Source: Armatimonadota bacterium
GTDB taxonomy: Bacteria > Armatimonadota > Zipacnadia > Zipacnadales > UBA5352
NCBI GenBank assembly: GCA_034722055.1
Contig: JAYENL010000254.1
Coordinates: 1 to 23,582 of the forward strand
Reading direction: 5' to 3'
Length of the DNA: 23,582 nucleotides
Shown here: positions 344-19,842 of the stretch, in pieces
How positions within the stretch are numbered: the stretch's first letter is position 1
How the letters are laid out: each line of letters begins with the position of its first letter
Notes under the pieces: model-generated
The model's database searches: none
Told to the model about the DNA's origin: nothing
Seen by the model: only the letters and a program-made list of their open reading frames with translations
Position numbers and translations under genes: made by a program

Positions 344-3300
344 TCAGCGCGCCTCCAGCCACGCCACGATGTTCCGCAGGAGCTGACCGCAGGCGTCCAC
401 GGAGAGGCCCTCCGGCGCCGCCTCGGTGCCGATAACGTAGCGGTCCGGCGACGGCTGCGCCACGAGCACGCCACCCCCGACATCCGCCTCGAGGATCGAC
501 GGGTTCCCGTTCTCGTCGCGGGCCAGCACCGTCCACGCGTCATCCTCCCCGACGATGGTGTCGTAGGAGATGACTCCGGCGAGAGGACCGACCTGGCCGG
601 GCCTCGCGAAGATGGCGTGGTGGGGTACGATAATCTCCGCCAGCGCGCTGGAATCGTCGGATAGCCTCAGCGGCAGCGGCAGGTACCCGGCCTGGTAGCT
701 GGTGTTCTGGAGCTGGATGAGCGCCACGCGGCCCCCGGAGGCGATGAAGTCGCGGATCAGCGGCCAGCCCTCCTGCAGGCCACAGAAGTCCTTCTCGTGT
801 GCCTCGCTCCCGATCAGCAGCGCCCCATAGCCCGCCAGCGTGGCGGCGCTGAGGTCCGGCAGGGCCGGCAGCTCTACGCCGATCTCCCCCAGCGCAGCGG
901 CCACCGGGTCCTCCTCGCCCGTCACCAGTCCCACCGCGTCGCCGATGTCGATCCGCCGCCCTGCGCGCGGCCTGGCGGTGAGCGTGCCCTCCGTCTCGTG
1001 GACGCGATAGCGGACCGTGACCTGCCCCTCGCCCGCGCCGGTGAGGCTGAAGGCCGGCCCCGGCTGCACGCCGGACTCGGCCGTCCACTCCACCGCCATC
1101 GGCTCGGCTGAGACCCCGTCGGGCAGCTCCACGATCTCGGCCATGGCCTGGAGCGGCCGCCGACCGCGGTTGTTGACCCGCACTGCCAGCAGGCCGGGCT
1201 GGCCGGCGGCCATGTACACCATACGCCCCATGCCCACCTGGGGCTCGGGCGGCGGCGGAGCGGGCAGCGCGGTCATCCCCCACTGCTGCATGGCGCTGAG
1301 GGCGAAGGGCGTCATGCGAATCTGCATGGCGTAGCCCTTGCCGGAGCCGGACGGCCCGCGGTTGATGACCATGTCGCCCAGCGAGCGCTCCAGCATCTCG
1401 CGGTAGATCTCCTCGCCGGCGAGGTCGTAGGCGTGCGCGAGGCCCTCGCAGGCCATGTAAGTGCCGGCGTGCGTGGAGCTGTCGTCGTACTGCGGGCACT
1501 GGGCGTACTGGAAGCTGTTGTCCTCGGGATGCCACATGCGCCAGTGGATCCAGTCGGCGCTGCGCACGATGGCGTTCCTGAGGTCCGGGTCGGGATCGAT
1601 CTGATCCAGCATCTTCAGTCCGGTCATGACCACGCCGGTCATGAAGGTCTTCCCGCCCATGTGCCGCACCTCGTGCTCGCACTCGCCGATGCCGTGGATC
1701 AGCGTGCCGGTGCCGGGATCCTGGCGGGCGACGACGTTCTGGCAGAACAGGCGCGCCGCGTTGAGATACCACGGGTGCGGGACGACGTGGTAGCCGCCCA
1801 GCGCGGCGATGGTGGTCCAGCCGTACTGCCGATGCACCCACTGCGACAGCCGCGTGGCCTCCTCCCGCGCCATCCAGTCCACCAGCAGCATGGCCGCCTC
1901 GCGGTAGCGGCGGTCGCCGGTGAGGCAGTAGGTGGTGAGCGTGCCCTGCGACCACACGTGGCCGGTGTTCCAGATGCCATCGGAGAACCAGTAGGTCGCC
2001 CCCTCCGGGCGCTGGATGTCGAAGCCGCCCACGTGCCCCACGCAGTGGGCCTTCTGAATGCCCACCAGGCTCTCGCTGGGCGCCACGTGGATGGTGTCCA
2101 CCGCGGCGGTGTGCCGCGCCGCCTCCTCCGCCCGGTCGAAGAACCGCCAGTCGCCCGAGCGCGCGAAGTGCACCAGCAGGCCCCACTGCAGGTCATACTC
2201 CTGGTTCGTCCAGTTCACCCACCGCTCCCCGTGCGTGTCGCCGAAGTTCATCCAGTCGTACTCCCGCACCCTCCGCCGGCGCTCCTCCAGCGCCTCGAAG
2301 CCCTCATCCATGTAGGTCTGGAAGCTCTCGAACACGCCGGGCTGCTCGGGCTCCAGCGGCTCGCCGAGCACGCCCGATGCACACATGTGCTCGGGACTGG
2401 CGGTCAGCAGCGGGATGTGGTCCCACGCCACGTCCATGATCTCCTTGGCCTCGGTATCATCGAAGCAGTAGAACAGGAGGTCGTAGCTGAGGGCCACGCC
2501 CATGGGGATGGAGTACTTGCCGTCGCTGCACCAGTAGTAATGCTGGGTGCGCTCCAGCGGCTCCATCTCCTCATCGGCGTACTGGTCGGCCGGCAGCTTG
2601 GGGAAGATCTCGGCCACCAGCCGTGAGCCCTTCGCCGAGTAGGCCTTGGGATAGAGCTGCCAGAAGTCGCGCATGGTCACGCCCAGGCTGCGCTGGAGGC
2701 CATCCTCCTCGTAGCTGAGGCCGACGGCCGCGTTCGTGTGCCCCTCATGCTCCTCCGTCCGGTCGCCGCGCGTCACGATGTAGCGGTTGTCGTAATCGTG
2801 CAGCATTCGCGTGCCCTGCTGGATCACCCGCCAGGCGTGCTCTGCCTCCTCTCGCTCCTCCTGGTCGGCCTCGCCGGCGATCTCCTCCCGCGACATCTCC
2901 GCCGCGAACCGGATGGGAACCGTGAGGCTCTCGATAAGGGTCATGGTCGGCGGCCGCACGGAGGTGCCCTCATCGCCGATGAGTGTGAAGACCGTGGGCA
3001 CGCCCGCAAAGCCGCGATAGAAGTACATGCGCCAGCGCCAGCCCAGCAGCTCGCCTGCGTCACCGGCGAACCGGCCCTCGGCGAGGATCACGGTGCGCAC
3101 GGGGCCGGCCTCCTCGACCTCCAGCCGCTCCACCGGCTGACCGGCGGTGGAGTAGACGTGGCCCTCGGCGTCGGTGAGCACCGCGCCCTCATCGGCGATG
3201 GCGATCCGCTCACTCTCAGCGAACCGCCCGTCGCCGTCGATGTCTCGCCAGAGGTCGCCCGGCGGCGAGAAGCGCTGGCGCGAGATCTCCGCCCGCAGCA

Positions 3301-5077
3301 CGTTGGTCGTGACGCGCAGCCCGTCCGGAGTCTCCTCGACGCGAATGGGCTCCGCCACCTCCGGCTGGCTCACCTGCTCGCCGTACTCCAGCGCGTAGTC
3401 CCCGGCGTCGCCTTCGTGCAGCACGCTGACCAGCAGCCACTTCACGCTGCCGTCCGGCCACCACGCCAGCTCCGTGAAGCCCGCCGGGATCGCCTCCCCG
3501 CCCCGCAGCAGTCGGCAGTGCGAGGCGTCGCGCAGATGGCCCTTTGGGATGGGAATGCCGCCGCTGATGGGCCACGCAGGCCGATCCTCCACCGGGTCGG
3601 TGACGGACAGCTCGACCCGCGCCCGCTCCACGCCACAGCGCTCCGGCCGCAGCGGCTCAGCGACGAAGGTGGCCACCTCCGACTGCGCCTGGCCCTCGCC
3701 ACGTCCCGCGACTGCACGGAAGCTGTAGGTCGCGCCACGGTCCAGATCGCGCAGCGTGATGCGATGGTTGTAGGTGCTATCCTCCTCCTCGGCGACCTGA
3801 TCCAGCTCGCCGGCACCCCACTGCACGCGCCCGCTGCATGGCCGATTGGTCAGGAAGCACACATCGACATCGACCGTCTCGCCCCGCTCGTCCGGAGCGC
3901 AGAAGGTCTCGATATCGCTGATGGTCAGCCCCGGCGGCTGCAGCATCTCCCGCGTGATGGTCAGCTCCGAGATGCGAGCATCCTGGGCCGGCCCGTCGCA
4001 GACGAGGCGGATCGACTGGCCCTCGCGCAAGGCCACCGGCTCGGGCGTGGAGCAGATGCGGATGAGGCCATCGTCACTCGCGGCCACCACCAGCGCCACC
4101 AGCTCATCGTCCAGGAAGACCTGCACCCGCTCCTGCCGCTCGGGGCTGTCCTGCAACACTACGTTGAGGTGATAGCTGCCGGAGACCGGTGCCGAGAGGG
4201 TGGCCGAGGCGCCCTTCTCGTCGGCGACCAGCGACCGGTCCTCGATGTGCATGTCCTGCACCCGGGCGGCGGTGAGGTCGAGCGTCACGGCGTCCATGGC
4301 GCGAAGCTGCTCCCGCCACGACAGCCACGGCTCCTCCACCCACACGCCCTCCGAGAGCAGCTCCGAGATGGAGCCCACGCGGGGCTTGAGGCGGTCGGAC
4401 TCGCCGGGTCCGCACACGGTGAACCACTCCTCGGAGCTGTCCTGATCGCCACTGGGCGGGCGGTACTGGCTGAGCACGTAGGCGCGGTACTCGGTGTTGC
4501 CCTGCTCGTTGTGGTTGAGCTGCAGGTCCATGGAGTAATACACGGAGCTGCCGTCGATGTAGCCGCGCAGGTCGCGGTTGTCCGAGAGCACGTCGGCGTT
4601 GCGGATGCTGGGCTTGAAGGAGCCGCTGGAGAAGACCAGCATCATGTCGGTGCCCAGCGCACCATCCTGGCGGCCGGTGGCGGTATCGTTGTCGCAGTCG
4701 AGGTAGAGGATGAGGATGGTGCCGGGCTTCCGGAAGTCCTCGGCGAAGTCCAGCCGCCAGACCCAGCGGTCCCCGGCTGCATTGCCGAAGTACAGGTTCG
4801 TGAAGTCGTTGGCCTGCTCGAAGTTGCCCGCCACCTCATCGCCCTCGGCCACCGAGCCGTCCTGGAAGACCAGGTGCATGGTGTCCGCGTGCTCGTCGTC
4901 CATCCCCAGGACCTTCTCGGCCATGTCCGGGATGCCGTCGTTGTCGGCGTCGGGCTGATCGGTGGCCAGCTCCGCCACCGGCGCCGGCTGCGGAGTGCCA
5001 TCATCGTCGGTGTCCTGGGCGAAACACGGCACGGCGAGCAGAGCAAGTGCGGCAAAGCATCTCGCAAAGCGCTTCAT
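344..5077 (-). CDS. Large secreted multidomain protein (~1577 aa) with a PcRGLX/YetA-like (exo-rhamnogalacturonan lyase, PL26-like) core
   Basis: Start reassigned to ATG 5077 (MKRFARCFAALALLAVPCFA signal peptide, GGAGG upstream). Has a DADNDGIPDMAE Ca-binding-like repeat, an FN3-like segment (YNHRITLRDLDRGATYSFRAVA) and PcRGLX-type motifs WPISGGIPIPKG, WPDGSVKWLLV, EEAGPVRTVI, YDWMNFGD and WTNQEYD, followed by an alpha-toroid-like region. Confidence 0.8.
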   Translation of the reverse strand: MKRFARCFAALALLAVPCFAQDTDDDGTPQPAPVAELATDQPDADNDGIPDMAEKVLGMDDEHADTMHLVFQDGSVAEGDEVAGNFEQANDFTNLYFGNAAGDRWVWRLDFAEDFRKPGTILILYLDCDNDTATGRQDGALGTDMMLVFSSGSFKPSIRNADVLSDNRDLRGYIDGSSVYYSMDLQLNHNEQGNTEYRAYVLSQYRPPSGDQDSSEEWFTVCGPGESDRLKPRVGSISELLSEGVWVEEPWLSWREQLRAMDAVTLDLTAARVQDMHIEDRSLVADEKGASATLSAPVSGSYHLNVVLQDSPERQERVQVFLDDELVALVVAASDDGLIRICSTPEPVALREGQSIRLVCDGPAQDARISELTITREMLQPPGLTISDIETFCAPDERGETVDVDVCFLTNRPCSGRVQWGAGELDQVAEEEDSTYNHRITLRDLDRGATYSFRAVAGRGEGQAQSEVATFVAEPLRPERCGVERARVELSVTDPVEDRPAWPISGGIPIPKGHLRDASHCRLLRGGEAIPAGFTELAWWPDGSVKWLLVSVLHEGDAGDYALEYGEQVSQPEVAEPIRVEETPDGLRVTTNVLRAEISRQRFSPPGDLWRDIDGDGRFAESERIAIADEGAVLTDAEGHVYSTAGQPVERLEVEEAGPVRTVILAEGRFAGDAGELLGWRWRMYFYRGFAGVPTVFTLIGDEGTSVRPPTMTLIESLTVPIRFAAEMSREEIAGEADQEEREEAEHAWRVIQQGTRMLHDYDNRYIVTRGDRTEEHEGHTNAAVGLSYEEDGLQRSLGVTMRDFWQLYPKAYSAKGSRLVAEIFPKLPADQYADEEMEPLERTQHYYWCSDGKYSIPMGVALSYDLLFYCFDDTEAKEIMDVAWDHIPLLTASPEHMCASGVLGEPLEPEQPGVFESFQTYMDEGFEALEERRRRVREYDWMNFGDTHGERWVNWTNQEYDLQWGLLVHFARSGDWRFFDRAEEAARHTAAVDTIHVAPSESLVGIQKAHCVGHVGGFDIQRPEGATYWFSDGIWNTGHVWSQGTLTTYCLTGDRRYREAAMLLVDWMAREEATRLSQWVHRQYGWTTIAALGGYHVVPHPWYLNAARLFCQNVVARQDPGTGTLIHGIGECEHEVRHMGGKTFMTGVVMTGLKMLDQIDPDPDLRNAIVRSADWIHWRMWHPEDNSFQYAQCPQYDDSSTHAGTYMACEGLAHAYDLAGEEIYREMLERSLGDMVINRGPSGSGKGYAMQIRMTPFALSAMQQWGMTALPAPPPPEPQVGMGRMVYMAAGQPGLLAVRVNNRGRRPLQAMAEIVELPDGVSAEPMAVEWTAESGVQPGPAFSLTGAGEGQVTVRYRVHETEGTLTARPRAGRRIDIGDAVGLVTGEEDPVAAALGEIGVELPALPDLSAATLAGYGALLIGSEAHEKDFCGLQEGWPLIRDFIASGGRVALIQLQNTSYQAGYLPLPLRLSDDSSALAEIIVPHHAIFARPGQVGPLAGVISYDTIVGEDDAWTVLARDENGNPSILEADVGGGVLVAQPSPDRYVIGTEAAPEGLSVDACGQLLRNIVAWLEAR

Positions 5078-5255
5078 CGTGTGCCTCCACGGGACATGGC
5101 TGTTGAGACCAGGGGCCCTGACAGCGCGCCTTGCGCCGATTGCCGACATGCAGCAAGATGTCCGCCCACGGCCTGACCATCGGCCGTGTGCCGGACCTGC
5201 AAGACATACAAGCCCTGGACCGCGCTGAGCGCCTGCTCTGGCGCGGCCTGCGCGG

Positions 5256-5939
5256 CTACGGCCAGTCAGGATCCATGCGGAAGTCCCGGCTGGCGTAGAG
5301 CGTGGGCGGGTAGTAAGCGTGCGGGACCCGTTCGCCGCTGACCCACTTGGCGTGACCGTCGCACAATGTGTAGTTCGCTCCCCCGTTGTGCCGATCGTAG
5401 CGCCAGACGAAGTTCTTGTTACCCGCGTCGGCTTCGTTGAACCATCGGCCGTAGGGGAGGTTCCCGTCCTGTTCGACCAGCATGATCACGCTCGCGGGCT
5501 CCCTGATTCTGGCCAGCTTTACCGGCTGGATGTAGCAGAAGTTGTAGTTCCAGCCGTAGCCAAGCGGCGGGTCATACACTTTGAGGCTGCCTCCGGAGCC
5601 CTGAACATAGAAGTAGTCGCGCATCTGACTGGGGCATGAGAGTATCTCCCGGTTCTTCAGGTAGGGCTCAATGTAGACGTACCACACTGACCGGCCACCC
5701 GGGTGGATGAGCGTCTCCGCTGGCTCACCTCCGGAATTGTGATACTGCAGTGGCAGGCGTTCGTCATAGTCCTGCGTGTACATCAGCACCGCCAGGCCGA
5801 TCTGCTTCATGTTGCTCAAGCAGCTCGTCTGCCGGGCCTTCTCACGGGCCCTCGCAAAGACCGGGAACAGGATCGCTGCCAGGATGGCGATTATGGCGAT
5901 CACCACCAGCAGCTCGATGAGTGTGAAACCTCGCTTCAT
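5256..5939 (-). CDS. DUF1559 / prepilin-type N-terminal cleavage-methylation domain protein with H-X9-DG motif
   Basis: Start at ATG 5939 gives MKRG^[45 protein letters not shown]-terminal [17 protein letters not shown]. Confidence 0.93.
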
Positions 5940-6029
5940 TGTGCTCACCCCAGACTTGTGATAGGCGTTACACGTAGATTCGAGGCCTGACCACGGTATT
6001 CCTTCCACTTGCGGGATGCGTTCTCACAG

Positions 6030-6059
6030 AAAAAGCATGCGCCCCACCAGGCGGAGGCA
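6030..6059 (-). terminator. Possible intrinsic terminator of the rSAM operon
   Basis: On the - strand, directly after the 6060 stop: a weak GC stem (GCCTC...GGGGC) followed by GCATGCTTTTT. Confidence 0.3.
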
Positions 6060-6821
6060 TCAGGACGGACGAGATGCTCCCACCCGTGGGTGAGCTGCGA
6101 CCACCAGCACATAGGGCACGTGCAGGAAGACCTCCCACTCGCCACAGGCGCCCGCAAGGCGCTGCCGGGCCTCGGCCACGGCCTGCCGCTCGGCATCGCT
6201 CAGAGGCAGGTCGTCCAGCAGCGCCAGCGCCTCGGCCTCCGCCGGTCGGGGGATGTGCGCCAGCTCCACCCACGGGTCCAGGCCGGCGCCCTCGCAGAGC
6301 CCGGGCAGCCTCCGGCCGACGCGCGGGTCGGCCCCGGCTCGGCTCAGCCCGTCGAGCCAGGCATCGCGGAGACCCATGGGAGGCTGCTCGAGCATCCCGC
6401 CGTAGTCCGGCTCCAGGGCCACCACGCAGCCGCCGGGCCTGAGGACCCGCGCCGCCTCACCGATGGCCGCCTCGGCCTTCCCGAGCCACAGGAGGACGTT
6501 CTCGAAGAGCACGAGGTCGAAGCTGGCGTCGGCGAAGGGGAGCTGTTCGGCATCGCCGGCCACAGGCCAACAGTGCGGTACCGCGGCCCAGCCCGCCCGC
6601 CGCTGTCCCAGCAGTATCTCGGCATCACGGTCGAGGGCCACCACCTGACCGCGGGCACGCCGCACAAGCTCGCCCGTCACCACCCCATGCCCGCACCCCA
6701 CCTCCAGCACGCGCTCCCGGACGCCGATCCGCGCCCGCCGCAAGGCACGCGACCGCGGCCCGGCCAGCCACCGGGCCAGCGCACGCGACAGCTCCAGCCC
6801 CGGGCGCTCCGGTACGCTCAC
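6060..6821 (-). CDS. Class I SAM-dependent methyltransferase (Methyltransf_11/UbiE-like fold)
   Basis: Motif I VLEVGCGHG, VVALD, GDAEQLPFADASFDLV and RVLRPGG. Start taken as GTG 6821, which overlaps the upstream TGA (GTGA, 6821-6818). Confidence 0.9.
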   Translation of the reverse strand: MSVPERPGLELSRALARWLAGPRSRALRRARIGVRERVLEVGCGHGVVTGELVRRARGQVVALDRDAEILLGQRRAGWAAVPHCWPVAGDAEQLPFADASFDLVLFENVLLWLGKAEAAIGEAARVLRPGGCVVALEPDYGGMLEQPPMGLRDAWLDGLSRAGADPRVGRRLPGLCEGAGLDPWVELAHIPRPAEAEALALLDDLPLSDAERQAVAEARQRLAGACGEWEVFLHVPYVLVVAAHPRVGASRPS

Positions 6822-8635
6822 CGGCCGCCACCGGCGCAGGCGCAGGCGCACGCGCAGCCGGCGCAGGCACAGGCGCAGCCGCCGCCCCCACTGAACCCGC
6901 CGCTGCCGCCGCTGGACTCGGCCATCGACTCCAGGAAGTCCATGCTGACCCTGTCCACGCCGGACAGGTCCATGACCTGGCTGTCAACAAGCCCGACGCT
7001 GACGGGGTCCATGGTGGCGGCCATGCGCCCGGTGACGTTCTCCGACCACCCCGCGAAGGAGGCCGCCACGTCGCCGAAGCTGGTCCGGTCGCCCGGCGCG
7101 GGCGCGGCCACGGTGGGGGCCTCGCCCGCCGGACGCGCCCAGCCCGGCGAGTAGTGATAGCCGGTGCGATGCCAGGTGTGGAAGTGCCGCGGGTAGCCGT
7201 CATCGAGCATCAGCCAGCCGATGTTGCTGTCCACGTACTCGTCGCGGCGCTCCACGTCGCCGATCTGCCGCGCCTCCGACCAGGCGTCGGCGACGATGGA
7301 CTGGTAGTACTCCCGGGTGCGCTCCAGATCGAAGCCCGCCATGCGCTCGGCGAGCTGATTGACGAGATGGCGCATCTGTTTGCTCAGGTCCAGGTCCGGG
7401 ATCGGCACGCCGGGCCGCTCCATGACGGCGTCCAGGAACGGCTGCTCGTAGCCGCGAACGACCGTCCCCAGCTTCGCCGCCACCTCCCGGCGCTCTCCAC
7501 GCGTGGTCCTGAAGTGCTCCGGGACCTCCACCGTCACCGGGTCATCGTTGATCATCACCACGAGGCCCTTCTTCAGCATCCCGAAGACCACCAGCGCCAA
7601 CACCTGGCCGAGCGGGCGCTCCAGCAGCACCGCCGCCTCGGGGGCCGTCAGCCCCCGCTTGATCTCCCCGCCCGGCACGGACTCAATGGGCGGCAGATAC
7701 GAGCGGCGCCGTGACGCTATCAGCCGGTCGCCCAGCAGCCACAGAAGGATCAAGACCGGGATGGCTACCAGCTCCAGCGTGGGCCCCAGCGGATTCGGCA
7801 GCGACCACAGGACCGGCAGGGCGATGACCAGAGGGATGAACAGGCAGGTGCCGGTGCCGCCGGTAAGCCGGAAGTACCACAGCGAGAACAGGATCAGCAG
7901 CACAATCCCCACGACCACCCGCGCGGTGCCGCTCTCCGTCCACCACTTCCACGCCAGGTCCAGCGCGGTCTGCCTCACCACCTGCTCCATCCAGTCCCTG
8001 GGGAAGGACAGGCCCACCATGTGCGCGTGGGACAGGCGCGTGTCAGCGAACACCCACGCGACAGCCTTGCGGCCCTCGAGCTGCATCTTGCGGTCGAAGG
8101 GCCGGTCGAGCTGGTAGACGACGTCGTCGGGATTCACCGAGTCCGGCAGATAGACCACGATCATGAGGTCCGTGGTCTCAGTCAGGAGGTCGCTATCGAA
8201 CCACGTCGGCGTGATGCGCAGGGAGGCCAGCTCCGCGTTGGTCGTGTCCTGATAGACCCGGTTGGGCATGGTGGCCTCAAACTCGAAGGTCCCGGTCTGG
8301 TTGGGCTGGATGGGAGGGCTCAGCGGCACCTCCACGCCCACGTCAACGTACTCCGAGGGCCGGATGGTTCGCTGGGGCATGCCGTTGAGCGACGCGCTCA
8401 TGTTGGCGATGTTGTAGTCGCGGTCCGGCAGCCCGATGTCCACGATGTCAATGGGGTCGGCGCCCCCGTTGCAGTGCAGCTTGATCGTGTACTGCAGCGT
8501 GACGGAGGCGTCAACATTCGGCGTGACCTCGAAGCGCATCTGAGGCACCGAGAACGAGTAGTCCTGCGCCTGGGCGGCGCTGCCCGTCACGAACGCGAGC
8601 GCGGCACAGACGAGCATCCACCGGGCGCGTGTCAC
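6818..8635 (-). CDS. Membrane protein (signal peptide, extracytoplasmic beta-domain, ~3 TM, cytoplasmic domain) with a Gly/Ser linker and a C-terminal (Cys-Ala)n tail; DUF2207-like architecture
   Basis: Signal MTRARWMLVCAALAFVTGSAAQA. Hydrophobic segments VVVGIVLLILFSLWYF, CLFIPLVIALPVLWSL and LVAIPVLILLWLLG, followed by RRR. Ends SSGGSGGFSGGGGCACACAGCACACACAGGGR. GTG start overlaps the upstream TGA, with GAGGTG SD. Confidence 0.88.
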   Translation of the reverse strand: MTRARWMLVCAALAFVTGSAAQAQDYSFSVPQMRFEVTPNVDASVTLQYTIKLHCNGGADPIDIVDIGLPDRDYNIANMSASLNGMPQRTIRPSEYVDVGVEVPLSPPIQPNQTGTFEFEATMPNRVYQDTTNAELASLRITPTWFDSDLLTETTDLMIVVYLPDSVNPDDVVYQLDRPFDRKMQLEGRKAVAWVFADTRLSHAHMVGLSFPRDWMEQVVRQTALDLAWKWWTESGTARVVVGIVLLILFSLWYFRLTGGTGTCLFIPLVIALPVLWSLPNPLGPTLELVAIPVLILLWLLGDRLIASRRRSYLPPIESVPGGEIKRGLTAPEAAVLLERPLGQVLALVVFGMLKKGLVVMINDDPVTVEVPEHFRTTRGERREVAAKLGTVVRGYEQPFLDAVMERPGVPIPDLDLSKQMRHLVNQLAERMAGFDLERTREYYQSIVADAWSEARQIGDVERRDEYVDSNIGWLMLDDGYPRHFHTWHRTGYHYSPGWARPAGEAPTVAAPAPGDRTSFGDVAASFAGWSENVTGRMAATMDPVSVGLVDSQVMDLSGVDRVSMDFLESMAESSGGSGGFSGGGGCACACAGCACACACAGGGR

Positions 8636-9912
8636 CGCACCTCACCACCTTGGCGATCATCGCTCCAGCCCGCCGGGTCCTTGGGGCAGTCGGCGCTGCA
8701 GATGGGCAGGTCCGGGCAGTCGGGGCAGCGCGTGGGCTGCTTGAGGCGCTCGCGATAGCGCTCGAAGGCCTCGTGGCCCCAGATGTCCGCCCAGGCATCC
8801 GCCAGGAGGTTCCCCGCAGCCTGGGCGCCGCGCGGGGGCAGCACCGTCCCGTCGGCCCGCACCCGGATGGTGATGTCCGCGGAGGTGCGGGGGCCGGCCA
8901 GGACTTGCTCGGCCAGGCCGCGAGCGCTGTCGAAGCGCACCGGGGGCGCCCACAGGTAGCGGGCCTGCGTGCTCTCCGCCAGCTCAATGAAGGTCGTGGC
9001 CACCTGCGGCAGGGCCCGGGCGGGCAGGGCGCCGGAGGCGTCGGCGGCCTCGTCCTCGTCCGGGCAGGCGATGGCGAAGCCCACGATGTTCGTGACCCCC
9101 AGCTCTTGCAGCCGTCCCATCATCTCGTCCAGGTCCGCGAGGTTGGCGTCGATCAGCGGCACCTGCGCCACCACCGCCAGCTCCAGAGCCTGCGCCTGCT
9201 TCACCGCGGCCACGAAGGCCGCGTAGTCCCCCTCGCCGCAGGTCGCATCATGCTCGGCGCGGTCGTGGCAGACGAAGAGCAGGTCGAGGTGGTCCAGCCC
9301 CGCCATGGCGCAGGCCTCGATGACCTGCGGTCCGCTTGACTCCCCGGAGCCGAGCCAGCCGGCGACCGTCCGCAACCCGCAGATCATGCCGATGTCCTCC
9401 GCCGCCTCCACCAGCAGCACAAGCTGCGCCACGTCCCCGGCCGGGTCGGTCTGGATGGCCGCGTGGGGAATCCCGGCGTCCCACAGGCGACGGATGAGCT
9501 GCTTGAAGCGATCCAGCTCGCACTGCTCCACGTCCGCCCGCAGCGGCGCCGCAAGCTGGCGCTGCCACTCCGAGAAGCGGGGGTCGGTGAGGTTGCTGAC
9601 GGGGTAGTTATCGCCGGGCTTGGAGAGGTCGGCGATCAGCTCCTGCACCGCCGCCAGGTCCGCCTGGACCTGACTCTCCGGCGCGCCCGGGAAGCTCTGC
9701 ATGACCCCGGAGACGATCTCCTCCTCGGCGCGCTCCTCCAGGATGCCTCGCGCCATGCGGACGCCGACCGGGGACAGGTAGGCCGCCTCCGCCGCGTTCG
9801 CCAGCAGCAGCCCTCGCCCGTCGGGATCGATCCGCAGGTGGAAGCGCGTCGGCCACTCGCCGACCAGCCGCTCGTAGGGCCTGATGTCTACGCCGTTCGG
9901 CCTGTCTGACAC
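8632..9912 (-). CDS. Degenerate radical SAM/SPASM paralogue lacking CxxxCxxC (putative pseudo-enzyme partner)
   Basis: GTG 9912 with GAGGTG SD 8 nt upstream. Colinear with the upstream rSAM protein (FHLRIDPDGRGLL; APLRAD; RLWDAGIP; AGLDHL; AGNLLADAWADIW; CPDCPDLPICSADCP) but has no CxxxCxxC or GGEP. Confidence 0.85.
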   Translation of the reverse strand: MSDRPNGVDIRPYERLVGEWPTRFHLRIDPDGRGLLLANAAEAAYLSPVGVRMARGILEERAEEEIVSGVMQSFPGAPESQVQADLAAVQELIADLSKPGDNYPVSNLTDPRFSEWQRQLAAPLRADVEQCELDRFKQLIRRLWDAGIPHAAIQTDPAGDVAQLVLLVEAAEDIGMICGLRTVAGWLGSGESSGPQVIEACAMAGLDHLDLLFVCHDRAEHDATCGEGDYAAFVAAVKQAQALELAVVAQVPLIDANLADLDEMMGRLQELGVTNIVGFAIACPDEDEAADASGALPARALPQVATTFIELAESTQARYLWAPPVRFDSARGLAEQVLAGPRTSADITIRVRADGTVLPPRGAQAAGNLLADAWADIWGHEAFERYRERLKQPTRCPDCPDLPICSADCPKDPAGWSDDRQGGEVR

Positions 9913-11339
9913 CGGCTCATCACCTCGCCTCGCCTTGCTCTGAGTTCCAGGGGACAGCCCCCGCCACACAGCCTCAGATGCTCGCAGTCGTGGCACTCGG
10001 GCGGCAGGTCGGAGCGCTCGGGGTGTTCCCGCCGGAATCGGATGCTGGTGAACAGGTCACTCTCCCAGATGCTCTCCCAGTCGTCGCGGAGGATGTTGCC
10101 CGCCGGCTGGTAGTAGGACTGGCAGGGCAACACGTCGCCATTGGGCTCCACGCACACGGAGTACTCGGCGGCATTGCAGAATCGCAGCCCCAGGCCCATC
10201 TCCGCGGGCGAGAGCTCGCAGTGTCGCGTCACGGTGTACCAGATGAAGCGCATCCCCCGCGCCCCCGCCCGGTCGCGCACCCGCGCCACGACCTGGCGGA
10301 GGCGCTCGATGCTCAGGGCGTCGGGGTGGTCTGTGCCGCGGCCGGAGTGGATGATCCCGTTCATCGCGAAGGTCGTCAGCCCCAGCCCCGCGAGGAAGTC
10401 GATGATCGCCTCCGCGTCGGCCGCGTTGTCCTCGGTGAGGGTGGTGTTGGTGATAGTGTGCAGCCCCGCGTCGAGGGCATTGCGGATGCCCGCCACCGTC
10501 TCGTCATACGCCTCGGCGCGGACAATGCGGTTGTGCGGCTCCCGCCGGTGCGACGCGAGCGTGATCTGCACGTGATCGAGCCCGGCCCGCGTGAGTCGCT
10601 CGACCAGCTCCCGGTCGGCGAGCCGCCGGCCGTTCGTGTTCATGCCGCACACCTGGCCGAGGAACTCAGCGTGCTCGACGAGGTCGAGCAGGTCCGGGTG
10701 CAGCGTGGGCTCGCCCCCGGTGAGGATGACGTAGGGTACGCCGATGTCCCAGAGGCGCTCGAGCACCAGCCACCAGTGCTCGACGTTGAGCGACCGCATC
10801 TCCCGGCGCTCGGGCTCGTTGTAGCAGTGCGCGCAGTCGTTGTTGCAGGCGTAGCTCAACGCCAGATCGGCCTTGTAGGGCGCCTGCGCGCGCACCGACA
10901 GCGGCGGCGGCTGCGGGATGCCCAGCTCGCAGATCACGCAGCCCTCCGCGGGTTGCCGCAGCTTCCGCATCGCCGCGGCCATGCGATCGTACTCGGACCG
11001 CAGCGCGAAGTCGCGCACCCCCGGGTAGAAGGTCCGCAGGCGCACGAGCGCCCGGTCGGCGGGCGTGTCGTCGAGCGCCGGCTCGGCCATCTCCACCTGC
11101 TGGGGACCGAGCAGCAGCGCGTCGGTCACGTTGCGCCACAGCACGCCGGTGCCGTCCTCGTGCACGCGCAGGTGCAGGCGCACGCGTCCTTCCGGCGTCT
11201 CGAAGCGCCAGTGGCGCATGCGCACGCCGCGCCGGGGCCGCAGCGCCCCAAGCCGCGCGCCCAGCCGGCCGAGGTCGGCGCGGATCTCTGCGCCCGCGCG
11301 CCTGGCGATACGGCCGAAGAAGGACGAACCGCTTACCAC
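9888..11339 (-). CDS. Radical SAM/SPASM-domain protein with a PqqD/RRE-like N-terminal domain
   Basis: CNNDCAHC at 10824-10847, ILTGGEPT, NTNG, SPASM CNAAEYSVCVEPNGDVLPC...GNIL...CHDCEHLRLCGGGCP. Start GTG 11339 with GAGGAG SD, overlapping the upstream stop. The ORF-track extension to 11930 overlaps other genes. Confidence 0.93.
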   Translation of the reverse strand: MVSGSSFFGRIARRAGAEIRADLGRLGARLGALRPRRGVRMRHWRFETPEGRVRLHLRVHEDGTGVLWRNVTDALLLGPQQVEMAEPALDDTPADRALVRLRTFYPGVRDFALRSEYDRMAAAMRKLRQPAEGCVICELGIPQPPPLSVRAQAPYKADLALSYACNNDCAHCYNEPERREMRSLNVEHWWLVLERLWDIGVPYVILTGGEPTLHPDLLDLVEHAEFLGQVCGMNTNGRRLADRELVERLTRAGLDHVQITLASHRREPHNRIVRAEAYDETVAGIRNALDAGLHTITNTTLTEDNAADAEAIIDFLAGLGLTTFAMNGIIHSGRGTDHPDALSIERLRQVVARVRDRAGARGMRFIWYTVTRHCELSPAEMGLGLRFCNAAEYSVCVEPNGDVLPCQSYYQPAGNILRDDWESIWESDLFTSIRFRREHPERSDLPPECHDCEHLRLCGGGCPLELRARRGEVMSRCQTGRTA

Positions 11340-11674
11340 TTGGGCTTCTCCTCGAGCTGGTAGGTCGTGCCGCAGTACGGGCACTTCACGTAGATGGCGC
11401 CCTCCCGCATCTCGATGGCGTCGGAGTCGAGCTGGGCCCCGCAGGAATTGCAGCGCAGGCGCTCGAGCTCCGTGTCGCCGGTGAAGTCTACCTTGTGGGT
11501 GATCTTGGTCTCCGGGCCCTTTGAGCGCGCCAGGTAGACCAGGAACCCCGCCGCGCCCAGCAGCACCACGCCGATGATCACGCGCGGCAGCGCGTTGCCC
11601 TGACCGGCCGCCACCAGGAAGATCAGTCCCGCGACTCCGAGGACGATCGCAAGCAGGTATCCAGCGGTCTTCAT
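11333..11674 (-). CDS. Small membrane protein: 2 TM helices plus a C-terminal CxxC...CxxC zinc ribbon
   Basis: MKTAGYLLAIVLGVAGLIFLVAAG and VIIGVVLLGAAGFLVYLARSK helices; LRCNSCGAQL...VKCPYCGTTYQLEE; 113 aa; stop overlaps the rSAM start. Confidence 0.85.
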   Translation of the reverse strand: MKTAGYLLAIVLGVAGLIFLVAAGQGNALPRVIIGVVLLGAAGFLVYLARSKGPETKITHKVDFTGDTELERLRCNSCGAQLDSDAIEMREGAIYVKCPYCGTTYQLEEKPKW

Positions 11675-11892
11675 GCCGTCGGCGGCCGGTCGGCCGCGAC
11701 ACCTCCTCAGCAGCGCCTCTTCGCGCCAGCCCTCCAGGATGTTCGGCCTGCGACCGCCCGGCACCTGCCCGAACGCTCGCCATCAGGCCGGCAGCGTCCG
11801 CGCCACGCCGGTCAGGGCGCATATCGGAGGTATCGGGGCGGGGATGCCGAAGAGAGCGTCCGCGGACCATCAGGCGCAGCGGAGGTCCCACG

Positions 11893-13281
11893 ATGGCTGC
11901 CGGCGATCGGCCCAACATACTCTTCATCATCTCCGACGACCAGTCGTTCCCCCATGTCAGCTACGCCGGCGATCCCGTGGTGCGGACGCCCAACTTCGAC
12001 CGCGTGGCCCACCAGGGCGTCATCTTCACCAACGCCTACGTCTCCTCGCCCTCATGCACTCCCTCGCGCGCCTCGGTGCTGACCGGCCGGAATCACTGGG
12101 AGCTGCGCGAGACCGGCAACCTCTGGAGCCTCTGGCCCGGGTGGGCGACATACACACAGCGATTCGCGGACGCCGGCTATCACGTCGGCTACTCGGCCAA
12201 GGGCTGGGCGCCAGGCCGCCGGGAGGACATGCGCGAGAACAACCCCGCCGGCCCCCGCTACGCGGATGTCCGCGAGTTCCTGGCCGCCGACTCCGGAGGG
12301 CGGCCGTTCTGCTACTGGTTCGGCAGTCACCGTCCCCACCGGCCCTACGTGGAGGGCTCCGGCGTGCAGGCCGGCATGAGCCTCGACGACGTGCCGGTGC
12401 CTCTGTTCTTTCCTGACGCCGAGCCCCTGCGCGCCGACATCGCCGACTACTACCTGCAGTGCCAGATGTACGACGCGCAGATCGGCGAGATCCTGGCGGC
12501 CCTGGAGGAGGCCGGCCGGCTGGAGAACACGCTCATCGCGGTGACCAGCGACAACGGCATGCCCTTCCCCCGCTGCAAGGCCAACCTCTATGACTTCGGC
12601 ACGCGCATGCCGCTGGCGGTCGCCTGGCCGGGGGTCATCGAGGGCGGGCGCATCGTGGATGACTTCGTCAGCTTCGCCGACTTCGCCCCGACCTTCCTGG
12701 AGGCCGCGGGCCTTCAGCCGCTGCCACACGCATCGGGCCGTAGCTTCCTGGACGTGCTCACCAGCGGCCGATCCGGCCGCGTCGATCCCCAGCGCGACCG
12801 CGTGCACTGCGGGCGCGAGCGCCATGCCATCTTCGGCACCGGCGGCGTCGGCTACCCCATGCGCTCGCTCCGCACCGACCGGTTCCTCTACATCCGCAAC
12901 TTCGCGCCCGACCGCGGGCCGGCCGGCAACCCGCCGCTCTACGGGGATGTGGACCCGGGCATCACCAAGCGCTACATGATCCGCAATCGTGACCTGCCCC
13001 AGGTGGCGCCGCTGTTCGAGCTGGCCTTCGGCGGACGCCCGCCGGAGGAGCTTTACGACCTGCGGCGCGACCCCGCACAGATGGTCAACGTGGCGCACCT
13101 GCCGGAGTACGAGGAGATCCGGCGCCGGCTGTGGGACGAACTGGAGAGCTACCTGGCGGCCACCGGTGATCCGCGCCTGGAGGACGATAGCTTCGACTTC
13201 GACACACAGGAGTACTTCGGCGGCCGGGCCTGGGCGCCCCGGCGGCAGCCGGAGGTGTTCACCCGCCGGCCACGGCCCTGA
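11893..13281 (+). CDS. Formylglycine-dependent sulfatase (family S1, Cys-type; resembles N-sulfoglucosamine sulfohydrolase-like members)
   Basis: RPNILFIISDD, SCTPSRASVLTGR (CxPxR), TSDNGMPFPRCKANLYDFGTRMPL, EELYDLRRDPAQMVN; GGAGG SD; no signal peptide. Confidence 0.95.
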   Translation: MAAGDRPNILFIISDDQSFPHVSYAGDPVVRTPNFDRVAHQGVIFTNAYVSSPSCTPSRASVLTGRNHWELRETGNLWSLWPGWATYTQRFADAGYHVGYSAKGWAPGRREDMRENNPAGPRYADVREFLAADSGGRPFCYWFGSHRPHRPYVEGSGVQAGMSLDDVPVPLFFPDAEPLRADIADYYLQCQMYDAQIGEILAALEEAGRLENTLIAVTSDNGMPFPRCKANLYDFGTRMPLAVAWPGVIEGGRIVDDFVSFADFAPTFLEAAGLQPLPHASGRSFLDVLTSGRSGRVDPQRDRVHCGRERHAIFGTGGVGYPMRSLRTDRFLYIRNFAPDRGPAGNPPLYGDVDPGITKRYMIRNRDLPQVAPLFELAFGGRPPEELYDLRRDPAQMVNVAHLPEYEEIRRRLWDELESYLAATGDPRLEDDSFDFDTQEYFGGRAWAPRRQPEVFTRRPRP

Positions 13282-13303
13282 TACAGCCTGAGAGGTGACA
13301 CGG

Positions 13304-15574
13304 ATGGCCGACTTCACGGCGACCGAGCGCGGCGTTTCGGTGTGCGATGAGGGAACGATGCTGGCCGAGTTCTGCGCGCCGGGCATCCTCCGCATTCGCG
13401 GCTGGCGCGGCGATGAGCCGCGGATGTCCCCGTTGCTCCGCTACGACCTGTGGCGGCGCCAATGGCCCCAGGTGCAGGTCGAGACGCGCGTGGAGGCCGA
13501 TGGGGCCGTCGCGACCACCGACCTGCTGGCGGTCGAGATGGACGCTGACGCCTCCTTCCGCGTGCTGAACGCGGACGGCGCGGAGCTGCTGGCGACCTTC
13601 CAGCGCCCCATGCTCGGGCCGGCGCCGGGCTTTCGCGCCCGGTTCGCCCTGGAGCAGGCCGATCGCTTCTACGGCCTGGGCGATCAGACCCGGGAGCGCA
13701 TCCAGCACCGGGGGACGAGCGGCGATCTGTGGGTGCGCAACGTCGAGGAGTACATCCCCATCCCCTTCGTGATCTCCACCCGCGGCGTGGGGCTGCTGGT
13801 GCAGACCACCCGCCGCGTCCTCTACGATCTCGGCGCCACCTCCGACGACTGGTTCGGCTTTGAGGCCGAGGGCCAGCACCTCGACCTCTACGTCATCTAC
13901 GGGCCGGAGCCGCTTCAGATCGTCGAGCGCTACACGCGCATCACGGGCCGTCCGATGTTGCCGCCGCGGTGGGGCTTGGGCCTGTGGTTCATCTGTCGCA
14001 CACAGGCGGACGCGAAGGAGTTCACCGACGACTGCCGCAACTTCCGGCGCGAGGGCATCCCCTGCGACTGCATCGGCCTGGAGCCGGGCTGGATGCAGAC
14101 GAACTACGACGCCTCGGTGGAGAAGACCTGGAGCGACGAGCGCTTCCGCATCCCTCCCTACAGCCGCTTCCGCCACACCTTCTTCGCCGCCGCCCAGCGC
14201 ATGGGCTTCAAGCCGGGCCTGTGGCTGTGCAATGACTACGACCTCTCCTATGAGGAGGAGCGGCGCGTCGATCCCGAGCTGAAGCAGGCCGAGCAGCAGC
14301 GCGACGCGGAGCGCGCGGCCTTCGCCACAGGCCACGAGGTGGACGAGCGCCCTTCGGGTCAGCGCCGCCTCGACCGCCTCACGCGCCAGGAGGAGCCGTG
14401 GTTCCAGCACCTGCAGCGCTTCGTGGACGAGGGCGCGCACTGGTTCAAGCAGGACGGCGCCTACCAGGTCCTCGAGCATCCCGATCGCCTGTGGGGCAAC
14501 GGGATGACCGACGCGCAGATGCACAACCTCTACCCCCTCATCTACTCCAAGCAGATGTACCTGGGCTTCCGGGAGCATACCGAGCGGCGGACCTTCCCGT
14601 TCACGCCCGCCGGCTGGGCCGGCCTGCAGCGCTGGACCGGCACCTGGACCGGCGACACCGGAGGCGAGGAGGGCCCGCTGGGAGCCTGCCTGAACCTCAG
14701 CCTCTCCGGACACGGCCTCAGCACCGTGGACATGGAGGCCGGCACGCCGGAGGGCATCCACTTCGGCTTCCTCCTGCCCTGGGCGCAGCTCAACTCCTGG
14801 AACTACTGGCGGCACCCGTGGCTGCAGGGGGAGCGCCTGCAGTGCATCTTCACCGACTACGCCCGCCTGCGCTACCGGCTGCTGCCCTACCTCTACTCCT
14901 GCGCCTGGCAGGCCCACCGCACGGGCGTGCCCATGATGCGCGCCATGCCGCTCGTTCACGACCAGCCGGACGCGGACGAGTGCCTCCGGCAGTTCTATCT
15001 GGGCCCCTCCCTGCTGGCGGGCTGCTTCACCGACCGGCTGTGGGTGCCCGGGGGCCAGTGGCACAACTTCTGGACCGGCGAGCGCTTGGACGGCGGCGGA
15101 TGGATCAGCCCGGAGGTGCCCGAGGGCCGCGGCGGGCCGCTGCTGGCTCCCGCGGGCGGGATGCTGCTGATGGGTCCGGAGATGGACTACGTCGGTCAGC
15201 GGCCGGACGATGAGCTGACGGTGCACGTCTTCGCCGGCGCGGCCGGCGAGATCACGCTCTACGAGGACGATGGCGAGACCTTCGCCTTCGAGGAGGGCGA
15301 GTACCGCACCCAGCGCATCTGCCACGAGCCGGTGGGCGACGGCCTGGGCGTGCACTTCGGCCCCGCGGAGGGCGAGTTCGAGGGCGCACTCGCCCGCCGG
15401 GAGCTGACCGTGGTGGCGCACGGCCTGCAGGACGTGACCAGCGTGGTCCTCGACGGGGAGGCGATCGCCCCATCGGCAGACGGCCCGCGGCCTCGCTGGC
15501 AGTGGCAGGCGAACGTGGTCACCGTGGAGCTGGGCCGGCGCGACGTGGGGCGCCTGGAGCTGGTTATCGAGTAG
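13304..15574 (+). CDS. Glycoside hydrolase family 31 (alpha-glycosidase)
   Basis: FYGLGDQ, IPIPFVIS, YTRITGRPMLPPRWGLG, FRREGIPCD, WFKQDG (nucleophile position), WTGD (acid/base), LRYRLLPYLYS, GVPMMRAM, LYEDDGET. ATG 13304 is preferred over GTG 13295 because of the GAGGTG SD. Confidence 0.92.
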   Translation: MADFTATERGVSVCDEGTMLAEFCAPGILRIRGWRGDEPRMSPLLRYDLWRRQWPQVQVETRVEADGAVATTDLLAVEMDADASFRVLNADGAELLATFQRPMLGPAPGFRARFALEQADRFYGLGDQTRERIQHRGTSGDLWVRNVEEYIPIPFVISTRGVGLLVQTTRRVLYDLGATSDDWFGFEAEGQHLDLYVIYGPEPLQIVERYTRITGRPMLPPRWGLGLWFICRTQADAKEFTDDCRNFRREGIPCDCIGLEPGWMQTNYDASVEKTWSDERFRIPPYSRFRHTFFAAAQRMGFKPGLWLCNDYDLSYEEERRVDPELKQAEQQRDAERAAFATGHEVDERPSGQRRLDRLTRQEEPWFQHLQRFVDEGAHWFKQDGAYQVLEHPDRLWGNGMTDAQMHNLYPLIYSKQMYLGFREHTERRTFPFTPAGWAGLQRWTGTWTGDTGGEEGPLGACLNLSLSGHGLSTVDMEAGTPEGIHFGFLLPWAQLNSWNYWRHPWLQGERLQCIFTDYARLRYRLLPYLYSCAWQAHRTGVPMMRAMPLVHDQPDADECLRQFYLGPSLLAGCFTDRLWVPGGQWHNFWTGERLDGGGWISPEVPEGRGGPLLAPAGGMLLMGPEMDYVGQRPDDELTVHVFAGAAGEITLYEDDGETFAFEEGEYRTQRICHEPVGDGLGVHFGPAEGEFEGALARRELTVVAHGLQDVTSVVLDGEAIAPSADGPRPRWQWQANVVTVELGRRDVGRLELVIE

Positions 15575-15591
15575 ACGAGGAGGGATGCCGC

Positions 15592-16962: not shown

Positions 16963-17151
16963 GCCGGACTGGCTGGGGAGTCGTGCTGTCGGCGAAACGC
17001 GCGGTCGAGGACGCCCGGAGGCGGCTCCGGTTCCGTTCTGCTGCCACACCCCGCCAGCGCCCTGTCACCACCTGACGGTCACTTGCACAAGCCCACGAAC
17101 GTTGATGATGAGAGTAGTCGGCGGCCCCGCTTACGGTGCCGAGGAGGATTC

Positions 17152-17388: not shown

Positions 17389-17503
17389 ATGGTAGCAGCG
17401 CACGGTACTCTCACGCAGGTAAGACGCGAACCGCTGCGGCACAGCAGTAGCTTGCGTGCGCCCGCGCCTCGAACCCACGATCCAAGGACACAAGCGGCGG
17501 ACG

Positions 17504-19825: not shown

Positions 19826-19842
19826 CAGTATCTCCCTCATCG

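Follow-up and report, generated by a model that had tools for sequence, protein, structure and literature searches.

A radical SAM enzyme family paired with membrane proteins ending in a cysteine repeat points to a putative tail modification

The radical SAM enzymes SkfB, CteB and SuiB act on short precursor peptides that are accompanied by export and processing genes. Proven examples of RiPP-type radical chemistry acting on a whole protein are few: QhpC, of the QhpD/QhpC system, and CrpA are named in the accessible part of one report (PMC13692751), in which CrpC (TIGR04463), an RRE-SPASM enzyme from Methanococcus voltae, was shown to form thioether cross-links in CrpA. The accessible parts of other reports describe SbtM (TIGR04082), a three-cluster radical SAM enzyme that forms a thiooxazole at Gly-Cys (PMC9204691), propose TIGR04222 membrane proteins as substrates of MNIOs (PMC12452194), and link a DUF2207 member of S. 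mutans to stress tolerance and biofilm (PMC10457818).

We analysed a window of 23,582 nucleotides, positions 1–23,582 of contig JAYENL010000254.1 from an Armatimonadota bacterium, in which five minus-strand genes, each overlapping the next, encode a Zn-ribbon protein, an intact radical SAM enzyme (rSAM1), its paralogue (rSAM2), a membrane protein with a cysteine tail and a methyltransferase. The rSAM1 start overlaps the end of the Zn-ribbon gene in GTGGTAA (11339/11333), rSAM1 and rSAM2 share 25 nt (9912/9888), and GTGA overlaps join rSAM2 to the tail protein (8635/8632) and the tail protein to the methyltransferase (6821/6818). The initial annotation had read this region as five co-oriented, overlapping genes, and the open reading frames, their junctions and a GC3 of 0.82–0.96 in the expected frame across 11900–6200 all agree with that reading. 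Two public contigs, from one study that is possibly the source of the window, cover 5900–11768 without gaps. A terminator-like hairpin with a T-run lies directly 3′ of the methyltransferase stop (6040–6059, minus strand); as two such sites were found against 1.5 expected, its position alone is suggestive. No sigma-70-like promoter was found, and clustering of neighbours over 175 loci revealed no additional gene conserved across types. The core of the system is the enzyme and the tail protein, and the remaining three genes are accessory.

Like CrpC/CrpA, the locus places an RRE-SPASM enzyme gene beside that of a full-size protein whose C-terminal Cys region is repetitive (PMC13692751). CrpA, unlike our protein, has a mass of 28.8 kDa and carries CxxQ/D repeats of 17 residues; its main text contains neither 'transmembrane' nor 'membrane protein', and the accessible part describes no dead paralogue, methyltransferase or Zn-ribbon gene for CrpC/CrpA (PMC13692751). 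In a TIGR04463 search of its own genome (cut-off 525), the window enzyme was unlisted and the best match reached 37.9 bits; the model was also missing from the enzyme's top 25 families, which puts it under ~61 bits, and the sister enzyme scored 87 bits. The TIGR04222/MNIO proposal likewise concerns membrane proteins with a Ser/Gly-rich, Cys-containing C-terminus modified within the protein, but its enzyme is an MNIO rather than a radical SAM protein, and 'SPASM', 'rSAM' and 'DUF2207' occur 0 times in the accessible text (PMC12452194). TIGR04222 proteins come mostly from Actinomycetota, are loosely linked and have tails predicted to be periplasmic (PMC12452194), whereas our tail is tightly linked, invariant and probably cytoplasmic. 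The homology is remote (sister-type L165, E = 4.8e-8, 32.9 bits against a cut-off of 43), with no TIGR04222 match for the window tail protein itself, and there is no MNIO gene in the cassette or match to PF05114 in the 92.7%-complete genome.

SkfB, CteB and SuiB share with rSAM1 the domain order RRE, radical SAM and SPASM/twitch and are among its best structural matches, but identity is only 18–23% and their NCBIfam cut-offs are not reached. Unlike in sactipeptide and ranthipeptide systems, the Cys core here terminates a membrane protein of 605 aa, and no credible short precursor was found. SbtM resembles rSAM1 as a SPASM radical SAM enzyme associated with a small-residue-Cys unit, in our case a putative target, but its substrate is a peptide with a GGUG motif, as far as the accessible text goes (PMC9204691), and rSAM1 scored 48 bits on TIGR04082 (cut-off 350). 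Pseudo-rSAM partners (TIGR04347) and CXXX-repeat systems (TIGR04115/TIGR04117) are in-silico NCBIfam families that also involve dead rSAM/SPASM paralogues and Cys-repeat targets, but scores were far below cut-off and the target architecture differs; the window enzyme was unlisted by the TIGR04115 maturase model (cut-off 350), and the tail has a period of 2, not 4. A literature search that included CACACACAGGG found no description of the system, with most subscription journals and the supplements of PMC12452194, which could list these loci, lying outside it. The earlier view that no characterised system has this composition thus stands for the NCBIfam cut-offs and the literature searched, although the concept itself is precedented by CrpC/CrpA and MNIO/TIGR04222. 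That literature yielded no case of radical chemistry on an integral membrane protein.

The tail-bearing protein (605 aa; 6818–8635, minus strand) is a core component, the putative substrate and a remote DUF2207/TIGR04222 relative. Its AF2 model comprises a signal peptide, an extracytoplasmic beta-sandwich (residues 28–212), three TM helices (236–310) and a cytoplasmic alpha/beta domain (331–490), followed by a low-confidence linker and the tail. The same layout of signal peptide, beta-sandwich, TM segment, cytoplasmic domain and Gly/Ser tail characterizes DUF2207 proteins (PF09972/PF20990), but the 13 ordinary members examined end in a Gly-rich run that lacks a Cys repeat. Neither Pfam model matched the window protein, and its relatives reached 22.5 bits against the DUF2207 cut-off of 24.4. 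Profile comparison by hhalign linked it to DUF2207 over 309 columns (90.9%, E = 1.1e-6; reversed control, 0.3%), with profile–profile probabilities to the family of 90.9–94.2%, ESM Atlas feature scores to DUF2207-bearing clusters of 0.93–0.95, and Foldseek matches to aminopeptidase-N and OST subunit 1 entries over ~210 columns. Remote homology over both domains and the shared architecture place it in a DUF2207-like superfamily. The tail is probably cytoplasmic, as had been proposed.

The protein closes with ...SSGGSGGFSGGGG-CACACAGCACACACAGGGR-stop, so that the seven-Cys, (Cys-Ala)n tail reported in the initial annotation is present; CACACAGCACACACAGGGR (residues 587–605; 6821–6877, minus strand) is the putative core for modification. 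Among the matches listed, 119 of 120 homologues end in this sequence or its 6-Cys form, the exception being labelled partial. The coding pattern for CACACAGGG occurs once in the 6.1-Mb genome, and a reversed control pattern occurred 0 times in 151 genomes and 0 times in 121 genomes. The 153 tails are encoded by 143 different DNA strings, and the three strain differences inside the tail (6842, 6854 and 6857) are all synonymous third positions; DNA slippage or chance as the origin of the repeat was rejected on these grounds. In a six-frame scan of the whole genome, the four other matches lacked the CACAGGG end and no credible short precursor carrying a comparable motif came to light, which bears out the earlier remark that no small precursor gene is evident. 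Tail cysteines number 4 to 10 and are preceded by A/G/S in 99% of Cys-Ala tails and by Ala in 93% of the (Ala-Cys-His-Ser)n (ACHS) tails of a sister clade, a pattern that fits a repeated local chemistry. Upstream, a conserved pre-tail segment, FGDVxxSFxGW ... DLSGxD (6911–7087, minus strand), has F, W, L and D invariant in 25 type-A sequences and is a candidate leader or recognition element. An unmodified poly-Cys tail that simply bound metal would likewise be conserved.

Enzyme and tail are closely associated across genomes, a co-occurrence that had been set as a check beforehand. Tail-anchored GTDB loci contained the same enzyme family within 7 kb in 73 of 79 cases, a partly circular count because enzymes adjacent to tails had served to build profile A2; the tests on genomes and metagenomes are free of this circularity. 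The six exceptions comprised four contig ends, one apparent chance match that lacked a tail-protein profile match, and one genome with both enzymes elsewhere. Conversely, the tail protein adjoined 66 of 80 enzyme-anchored metagenome loci. Most of the linkage misses were contig ends, but three enzyme-anchored loci with ~8 kb upstream (L174, L186 and L218) contained no tail gene. Within the phylum of the window (151 genomes), the tail pattern was found in 13 of 14 genomes with a high-scoring enzyme versus 0 of 137 others, and within the class of a second genome, G151 (121 genomes), in 19 of 19 versus 0 of 102. The sister enzyme clade pairs with the ACHS tail (10 of 10 loci; 19 of 21 genomes), and the Cys-Ala tail was never found in its 21 genomes. 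This very tight two-way co-occurrence supports the intact membrane-protein tail as the likely substrate, as first suggested.

rSAM1 (483 aa; 9888–11339, minus strand), the core enzyme, exceeded Pfam cut-offs for Radical_SAM (PF04055; 100.4 bits against 29.5, E = 1.6e-28) and SPASM (PF13186; 41.3 bits against 21.5, E = 1.9e-10). Its CxxxCxxC motif (C165, C169 and C172; 10824–10847, minus strand) is invariant in all 146 typed rSAM1 rows, which were chosen partly by that motif. The motif and both domains place the enzyme in the radical SAM superfamily and the SPASM/twitch subclass. The SPASM region (9954–10220, minus strand) contains eight cysteines (374, 388, 396, 406, 449, 452, 458 and 462), and C449, C452 and C458 are missing from 37 of 41 Bacillota-type enzymes, which are twitch-like. 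In the AF2 model (pLDDT 91.9), residues ~41–127 (10959–11219, minus strand) form an RRE-like (PqqD-like) N-terminal domain of four strands followed by three helices, and the best structural matches, SkfB (Z = 28.3) and SuiB (Z = 26.6), align across it from residue 4–13 onwards. PqqD was not detected by Pfam in rSAM1 itself but scored above cut-off in orthologue L036 and sister L165, and the proposal of an RRE domain on the enzyme is upheld. No NCBIfam equivalog cut-off was reached (SkfB, 81 bits against 300; StsB, 91 bits against 625), and sactipeptide and ranthipeptide maturase equivalogs gave best E-values of 1e-44 or weaker over 50 family members. The chemistry cannot be read from homology because rSAM1 is as similar to models of small-molecule enzymes (NirJ2, AhbD, PqqE and MftC) as to those of thioether maturases.

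We consider it probable (roughly 0.72) that the tail cysteines undergo oxidative modification by an rSAM1-family enzyme while part of the intact membrane protein. Supporting this reading, the structure model is closest to RRE-bearing peptide maturases, and an RRE-SPASM enzyme that cross-links Cys in a large protein has precedent in the accessible account of CrpC (PMC13692751). After insertion of the membrane protein, with the beta-sandwich outside and the Gly/Ser-linked tail in the cytoplasm, rSAM1 would bind through its RRE, the conserved pre-tail segment being the candidate site, and would cleave SAM and move repeatedly along the tail, oxidizing each small-residue-Cys unit. The modified tail may then stay attached to what would be an envelope or stress protein, as a cytoplasmic module that is rigid or binds metal; this is the weakest step of the model. 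A complex prediction of rSAM1, rSAM2, the last 95 residues and three 4Fe-4S clusters scored 0.02, which counts neither for nor against binding. With 19 nearly invariant residues in the putative substrate, a short fusion would suffice to test the chemistry directly.

By analogy with SkfB, CteB or CrpC, the likeliest single product would be Cys thioether cross-links, at somewhat below even odds; the thioether chemistry originally proposed thereby keeps first place as one candidate among several. Next, and considerably more tentative, is an SbtM-like thiooxazole at each Xaa-Cys (−4 Da per Cys, thiol retained), giving a poly-heterocycle, metal-chelating tail that would be an oxygen-independent counterpart of MNIO/TIGR04222. 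SbtM does this at Gly-Cys (PMC9204691, accessible part), small-residue-Cys is the sole unit common to both tail families, thioether rings from i to i+3 would hardly fit the alternating Cys spacing, Cys-tailed TIGR04222 membrane proteins, which are distantly related, show linkage to MNIOs (PMC12452194, accessible part), and no MNIO gene was detected in this genome; against it stand the low SbtM score and the preference of the structure for SkfB-, SuiB- and CteB-type enzymes. A broader proposal, also doubtful, is that the family turns the Xaa-Cys repeat into a sulfur-heterocycle chain or another unseen Cys modification, assisted by the pseudo-enzyme and a capping methyltransferase, to yield a membrane-anchored metal-binding or sensing module in two alternative tail versions, again as an oxygen-independent MNIO/TIGR04222 counterpart.

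Poly-Cys stretches, like Cys/His repeats, typically bind metal. The tail could stay unmodified, as a native thiol array binding metal or an Fe-S cluster, with the rSAM proteins either loading it or working on some other substrate that the membrane protein delivers. Zn ribbons are a recurring feature of the cassette and occur even within 18 Bacillota-type tail-protein rows, and rSAM2 retains one Cys cluster motif without catalysis; this reading is nonetheless unlikely, as the invariant CxxxCxxC, the SAM-binding motifs and the RRE mark a peptide-binding catalyst, and the tail repeat type switches with enzyme clade. A classical RiPP, with the modified tail cleaved from the protein to yield a free bioactive peptide, would suit the leader, linker and core-like layout and the follower after GGG in Bacillota-type tails, but this earlier suggestion is improbable because no protease or exporter recurs beside the cassette (only generic ABC ATPases in scattered places and strands), and the long conserved membrane scaffold is kept throughout. 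Least probable is an rSAM1 epimerase making mass-neutral alternating D/L residues and a beta-helix-like tail, since, for all the resemblance of strict Cys-Ala alternation to polytheonamide-type epimerization and an EpeE match at Z = 18.2, EpeE falls far below SkfB and SuiB, the sister tail has a period of 4, and conservation centres on Cys.

The accessory genes belong to one version of the system. rSAM2 (426 aa; 8632–9912, minus strand) retains an RRE and a C-terminal CxxCx5Cx3C but no longer has CxxxCxxC, GGE or the PC cysteine; CxxxCxxC is deleted in 31 of 31 rSAM2 sequences, so the protein does not qualify as an active radical SAM enzyme, consistent with its first description as an inactive paralogue. 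These sequences form one clade (100% SH-like support), which groups with type-A rSAM1 by FastTree (97%) and with R3, a second dead paralogue, by quick IQ-TREE (88%); a true outgroup was lacking from these trees, and the 46-row tree omitted L066_R1 and L228_R3. AU tests rejected neither rSAM2+A (P = 0.81) nor R3+B2 (P = 0.41), and the dead paralogues may stem from either one or two duplications. rSAM2 may act as a non-catalytic partner adding a second RRE and one Fe-S site. A natural rSAM1–rSAM2 fusion (L154) supports the suggested heterodimer here, but such a partnership is not generally required because the dead paralogue is absent from all 41 Bacillota-type loci.

The methyltransferase (253 aa; 6060–6821, minus strand) is a class I SAM enzyme (Methyltransf_11) of a cassette-specific subfamily, whose profile matched 11 of 151 genomes, each of them one of the 14 that carry rSAM1. 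LahSB (E = 2.5e-22) was its second-best match, flanked by other methyltransferases with E = 3.8e-23 and 4.1e-22. The enzyme may cap the C-terminal carboxylate or methylate sulfur. Arginine methylation is disfavoured, as locus L027 pairs the gene with a tail ending GGGV. The small membrane protein (113 aa; 11333–11674, minus strand) has two hydrophobic segments, taken as TM helices, and at its C-terminus a C4 zinc ribbon that closes with ...EExPKW; Pfam Zn-ribbon matches were weak and below cut-off, but the four cysteines are invariant in 34 homologues and every one of the 19 type-A loci that span at least 12 kb contains the gene. Its profile did not match the Bacillota internal zinc ribbon. 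The methyltransferase and Zn-ribbon genes, like the dead paralogue, are missing from 41 of 41 Bacillota-type loci, and the five-gene composition first noted is thus real in the window but describes only one version of the system.

Mapped on the enzyme tree, tail type required 6 changes for 5 types, a congruence that is no proof of co-evolution because linked genes are co-inherited and kin are non-independent. No genome searched contained both Cys-Ala and ACHS systems (P = 0.019 and 0.37 before allowing for kinship), which is only a hint of mutual exclusion. Together, the comparisons point to a widespread, uncharacterised protein modification in bacteria and archaea, and the system could help to reveal what the DUF2207/TIGR04222 superfamily does and what role pseudo-radical-SAM proteins play. 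A single search scored at least 6,444 related proteins, and the system reaches gut Bacillota, including a Gemmiger formicilis strain (L053), as well as Anaerolineae, Planctomycetota, Armatimonadota, Methanomassiliicoccales and Asgard archaea.

The cassette consists of five minus-strand ORFs (11674-11333, 11339-9888, 9912-8632, 8635-6818 and 6821-6060), each overlapping its neighbor as the initial annotation had claimed, with a terminator-like hairpin after the last stop. Gap-free coverage of the operon comes from two public contigs; inside the tail, strains differ at three sites, all of them synonymous. The window is an entire contig, C254, of a source genome that measures 6.1 Mb and is 92.7% complete. 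In order, the flanks carry a PcRGLX-like secreted protein (344-5149, minus) and a prepilin-type DUF1559 protein (5256-5939, minus) on one side and a sulfatase (11893-13281, plus) and GH31 hydrolase (13295-15574, plus) on the other; the remaining stretch (15502-23582) holds four further large ORFs without a Pfam match (15595-16962, 17504-19900, 19843-22278 and 22476-23525). The four annotated neighbors are unrelated to the cassette, and none of the flanking genes appears to be linked to it.

A GTDB motif scan for the Cys-Ala tail yielded at least 122 stretches in at least 121 loci, with those listed including at least 67 from Bacillota, 13 from Chloroflexota, 8 each from Thermoplasmatota and Planctomycetota, 4 from Heimdallarchaeota and 3 from Armatimonadota, plus smaller groups. 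Among the GTDB matches listed, an enzyme of the family of rSAM1, the 483-aa radical SAM protein, lay within 7 kb of the tail at 73 of 79 flank-bearing loci, the co-occurrence that the initial annotation had proposed to look for. The other six comprised four contig ends, one apparent chance match and L072, where both enzymes lie on another contig with one stop within the rSAM1 match. Because such loci supplied the enzyme profile, this tail-anchored test is circular in part; the non-circular reverse test revealed the tail or its protein at 66 of 80 enzyme-anchored metagenome loci. Where it was missing, 11 loci had less than 2.3 kb upstream, and L174, L186 and L218 are real or possible exceptions. 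Across 151 genomes of the same phylum, the enzyme profile splits into 14 high-band and 10 low-band genomes, the low band being a sister enzyme clade. The tail pattern occurs in 13, all high-band, with the sole high-band miss being a gene cut by a contig end, and the cassette methyltransferase in 11, again all high-band. In the class of genome G151 (121 genomes, reached via locus L059, titled Anaerolineales), the 19 genomes with a high-band enzyme are exactly the 19 with a tail. These profiles are given without a P value because related genomes are not independent.

Two tail-protein paralogs, with differing pre-tail segments or divergent orientation, lie near one enzyme at seven loci (L049, L171, L177, L178, L231, L016 and L058). 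In-frame stops within the rSAM match at L166:7694 (TGA, genome G148) and G155:C53:11442-12752 (TAA) are possibly broken genes or sequence errors.

Radical_SAM and SPASM domains were found in rSAM1, and its AF2 model (pLDDT 91.9) begins with a domain of four strands then three helices. Near full length, the model aligns both with SkfB (Z 28.3; 353 aligned at rmsd 4.1) and with SuiB (Z 26.6; 371 aligned at rmsd 3.7), which together make the N-terminal RRE proposed earlier very likely. The enzyme reached no NCBIfam equivalog cut-off and did not attain those of the models for SbtM, CrpC and the CXXX-repeat maturase; the best NCBIfam model across 50 family members was no better than E 1e-44, and no NCBIfam system cut-off was reached for the cassette. 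The dead paralog rSAM2 lacks CxxxCxxC in every one of 31 sequences and has also lost GGE and the PC cysteine; its RRE signature is retained, as is CxxCx5Cx3C (28-29 of 31). It shares one frame of 942 codons with rSAM1 at L154:6082-8910 (minus) and is apparently also fused at L169, which we counted as one event because the tails are identical. A second, differently decayed paralog, R3 (37 loci, including L181, L183, L185, L218:9701-10915 and L222:1974-3125), has CxxxCxxC substituted rather than deleted, GGEPT retained and the SPASM cysteines gone. At L007:5503-9039 (plus), rSAM2 lacks its SPASM end and continues in frame into the tail protein, which may be a natural fusion, deletion or assembly artefact.

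The 605-aa tail protein ends in a Gly/Ser linker followed by CACACAGCACACACAGGGR and has no Pfam or NCBIfam match. AF2 predicts a signal helix, then a beta-sandwich at residues 28-212 and helices at 236-258, 263-277 and 283-310; residues 331-490 form an alpha/beta domain, and the end of the model is of low confidence. Foldseek matches over ~210 columns were entries for aminopeptidase-N and oligosaccharyltransferase subunit 1. Comparing its profile with 12 DUF2207 proteins (90.9% over 309 columns; reversed control, 0.3%) identifies the protein as a remote DUF2207/TIGR04222 relative with a gained Cys tail, in agreement with the ESM Atlas. Three hydrophobic segments then RRRS suggest a cytoplasmic tail; relatives of other types mostly have one segment in the same crude scan, implying the same tail side. 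Of 8,000 candidates searched, 6,444 scored as relatives, and of the best 120 listed, 119 have a C-terminal 7- or 6-Cys tail, the other being labelled partial; the closest among these is 89% identical and labelled Armatimonadota. Eighteen Bacillota rows (16 distinct; for example, L003, L012 and L076), of the type without a separate Zn-ribbon gene, contain an internal CxxCG..CxxCG zinc ribbon, and their tails go on as RAGC(S/T)xKDFY.

The five-gene cassette described in the initial annotation is present in the window but is not general. At loci of at least 12 kb, the window type (19 loci) has the Zn-ribbon gene in 19, the dead paralog in 19 and the methyltransferase in 13; the second type, with tail ...CAGCACACAGGGR (18 loci), has 17, 18 (R3) and 16; and the mainly archaeal type (10 loci) has 6, 0 and 8. 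All three genes are absent from the Bacillota type, whose tail has a follower (24 loci), and from the type ending in (Ala-Cys-His-Ser)n, or ACHS (7 loci). A two-gene core of enzyme and tail protein therefore underlies the five-gene form, which elaborates on it. Wherever the methyltransferase is found, the protein ends directly after GGG-x, which fits C-terminal carboxyl methylation like that described for LahSB (PMC11285071), although LahSB was not clearly closer to it than other methyltransferases.

The ACHS system (L159-L168; for example, L161:8912-10642 and 7575-9011, minus) accompanies the low-band enzymes, with a homologous membrane protein (hhalign 98.2%) ending in the repeat at 10 of 10 loci. 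Eight of these have a third membrane gene after the pair, a LemA gene (L168:4983-5594) lies directly upstream of one ACHS-tail protein, and one ACHS-type protein matches TIGR04222 below the cut-off (E 4.8e-8). In the G151 class, 19 of 21 low-band genomes carry the repeat (G164, G170, G171 and 16 more) and 0 of 21 a Cys-Ala tail; the two systems never occurred together in the 272 genomes searched. On the enzyme tree, 6 changes suffice for 5 tail types, a result that linked genes would be expected to give and that is supportive only. Cysteine counts vary from 4 to 10 in 188 Cys-Ala tails and from 9 to 13 in 12 ACHS tails, and the unit common to both is a small residue then Cys.

The best reading of this system, to which we assign a probability of roughly 70%, is iterative radical modification, in which the enzyme would act repeatedly on the tail cysteines while the tail is still part of the intact membrane protein. 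Thioether cross-links are the favored product because of the structural neighbors and the CrpC/CrpA precedent (PMC13692751). The main rival is that the cysteines become SbtM-like thiooxazoles, for which the Xaa-Cys unit of the tails, the SbtM precedent (PMC9204691) and an analogy with MNIO-linked TIGR04222 proteins (PMC12452194) all argue. Less likely are an unmodified tail that binds metal or Fe-S natively, an epimerised tail and a released tail peptide; no recurrent protease or exporter was found beside the cassettes in the neighborhoods examined. If radically modified, the tail could give an envelope or stress protein a module for metal binding or sensing; a DUF2207 mutant of S. mutans is described as stress-sensitive (PMC10457818).

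The openly accessible literature searched contained no description of the Cys-Ala system. The proposed principle, in which an RRE-SPASM enzyme acts on a stretch of Cys repeats within a large protein, is already published for CrpC/CrpA. Relative to this principle, the system adds a putative membrane-protein substrate, an invariant tail, a pseudo-enzyme and a spread across domains.
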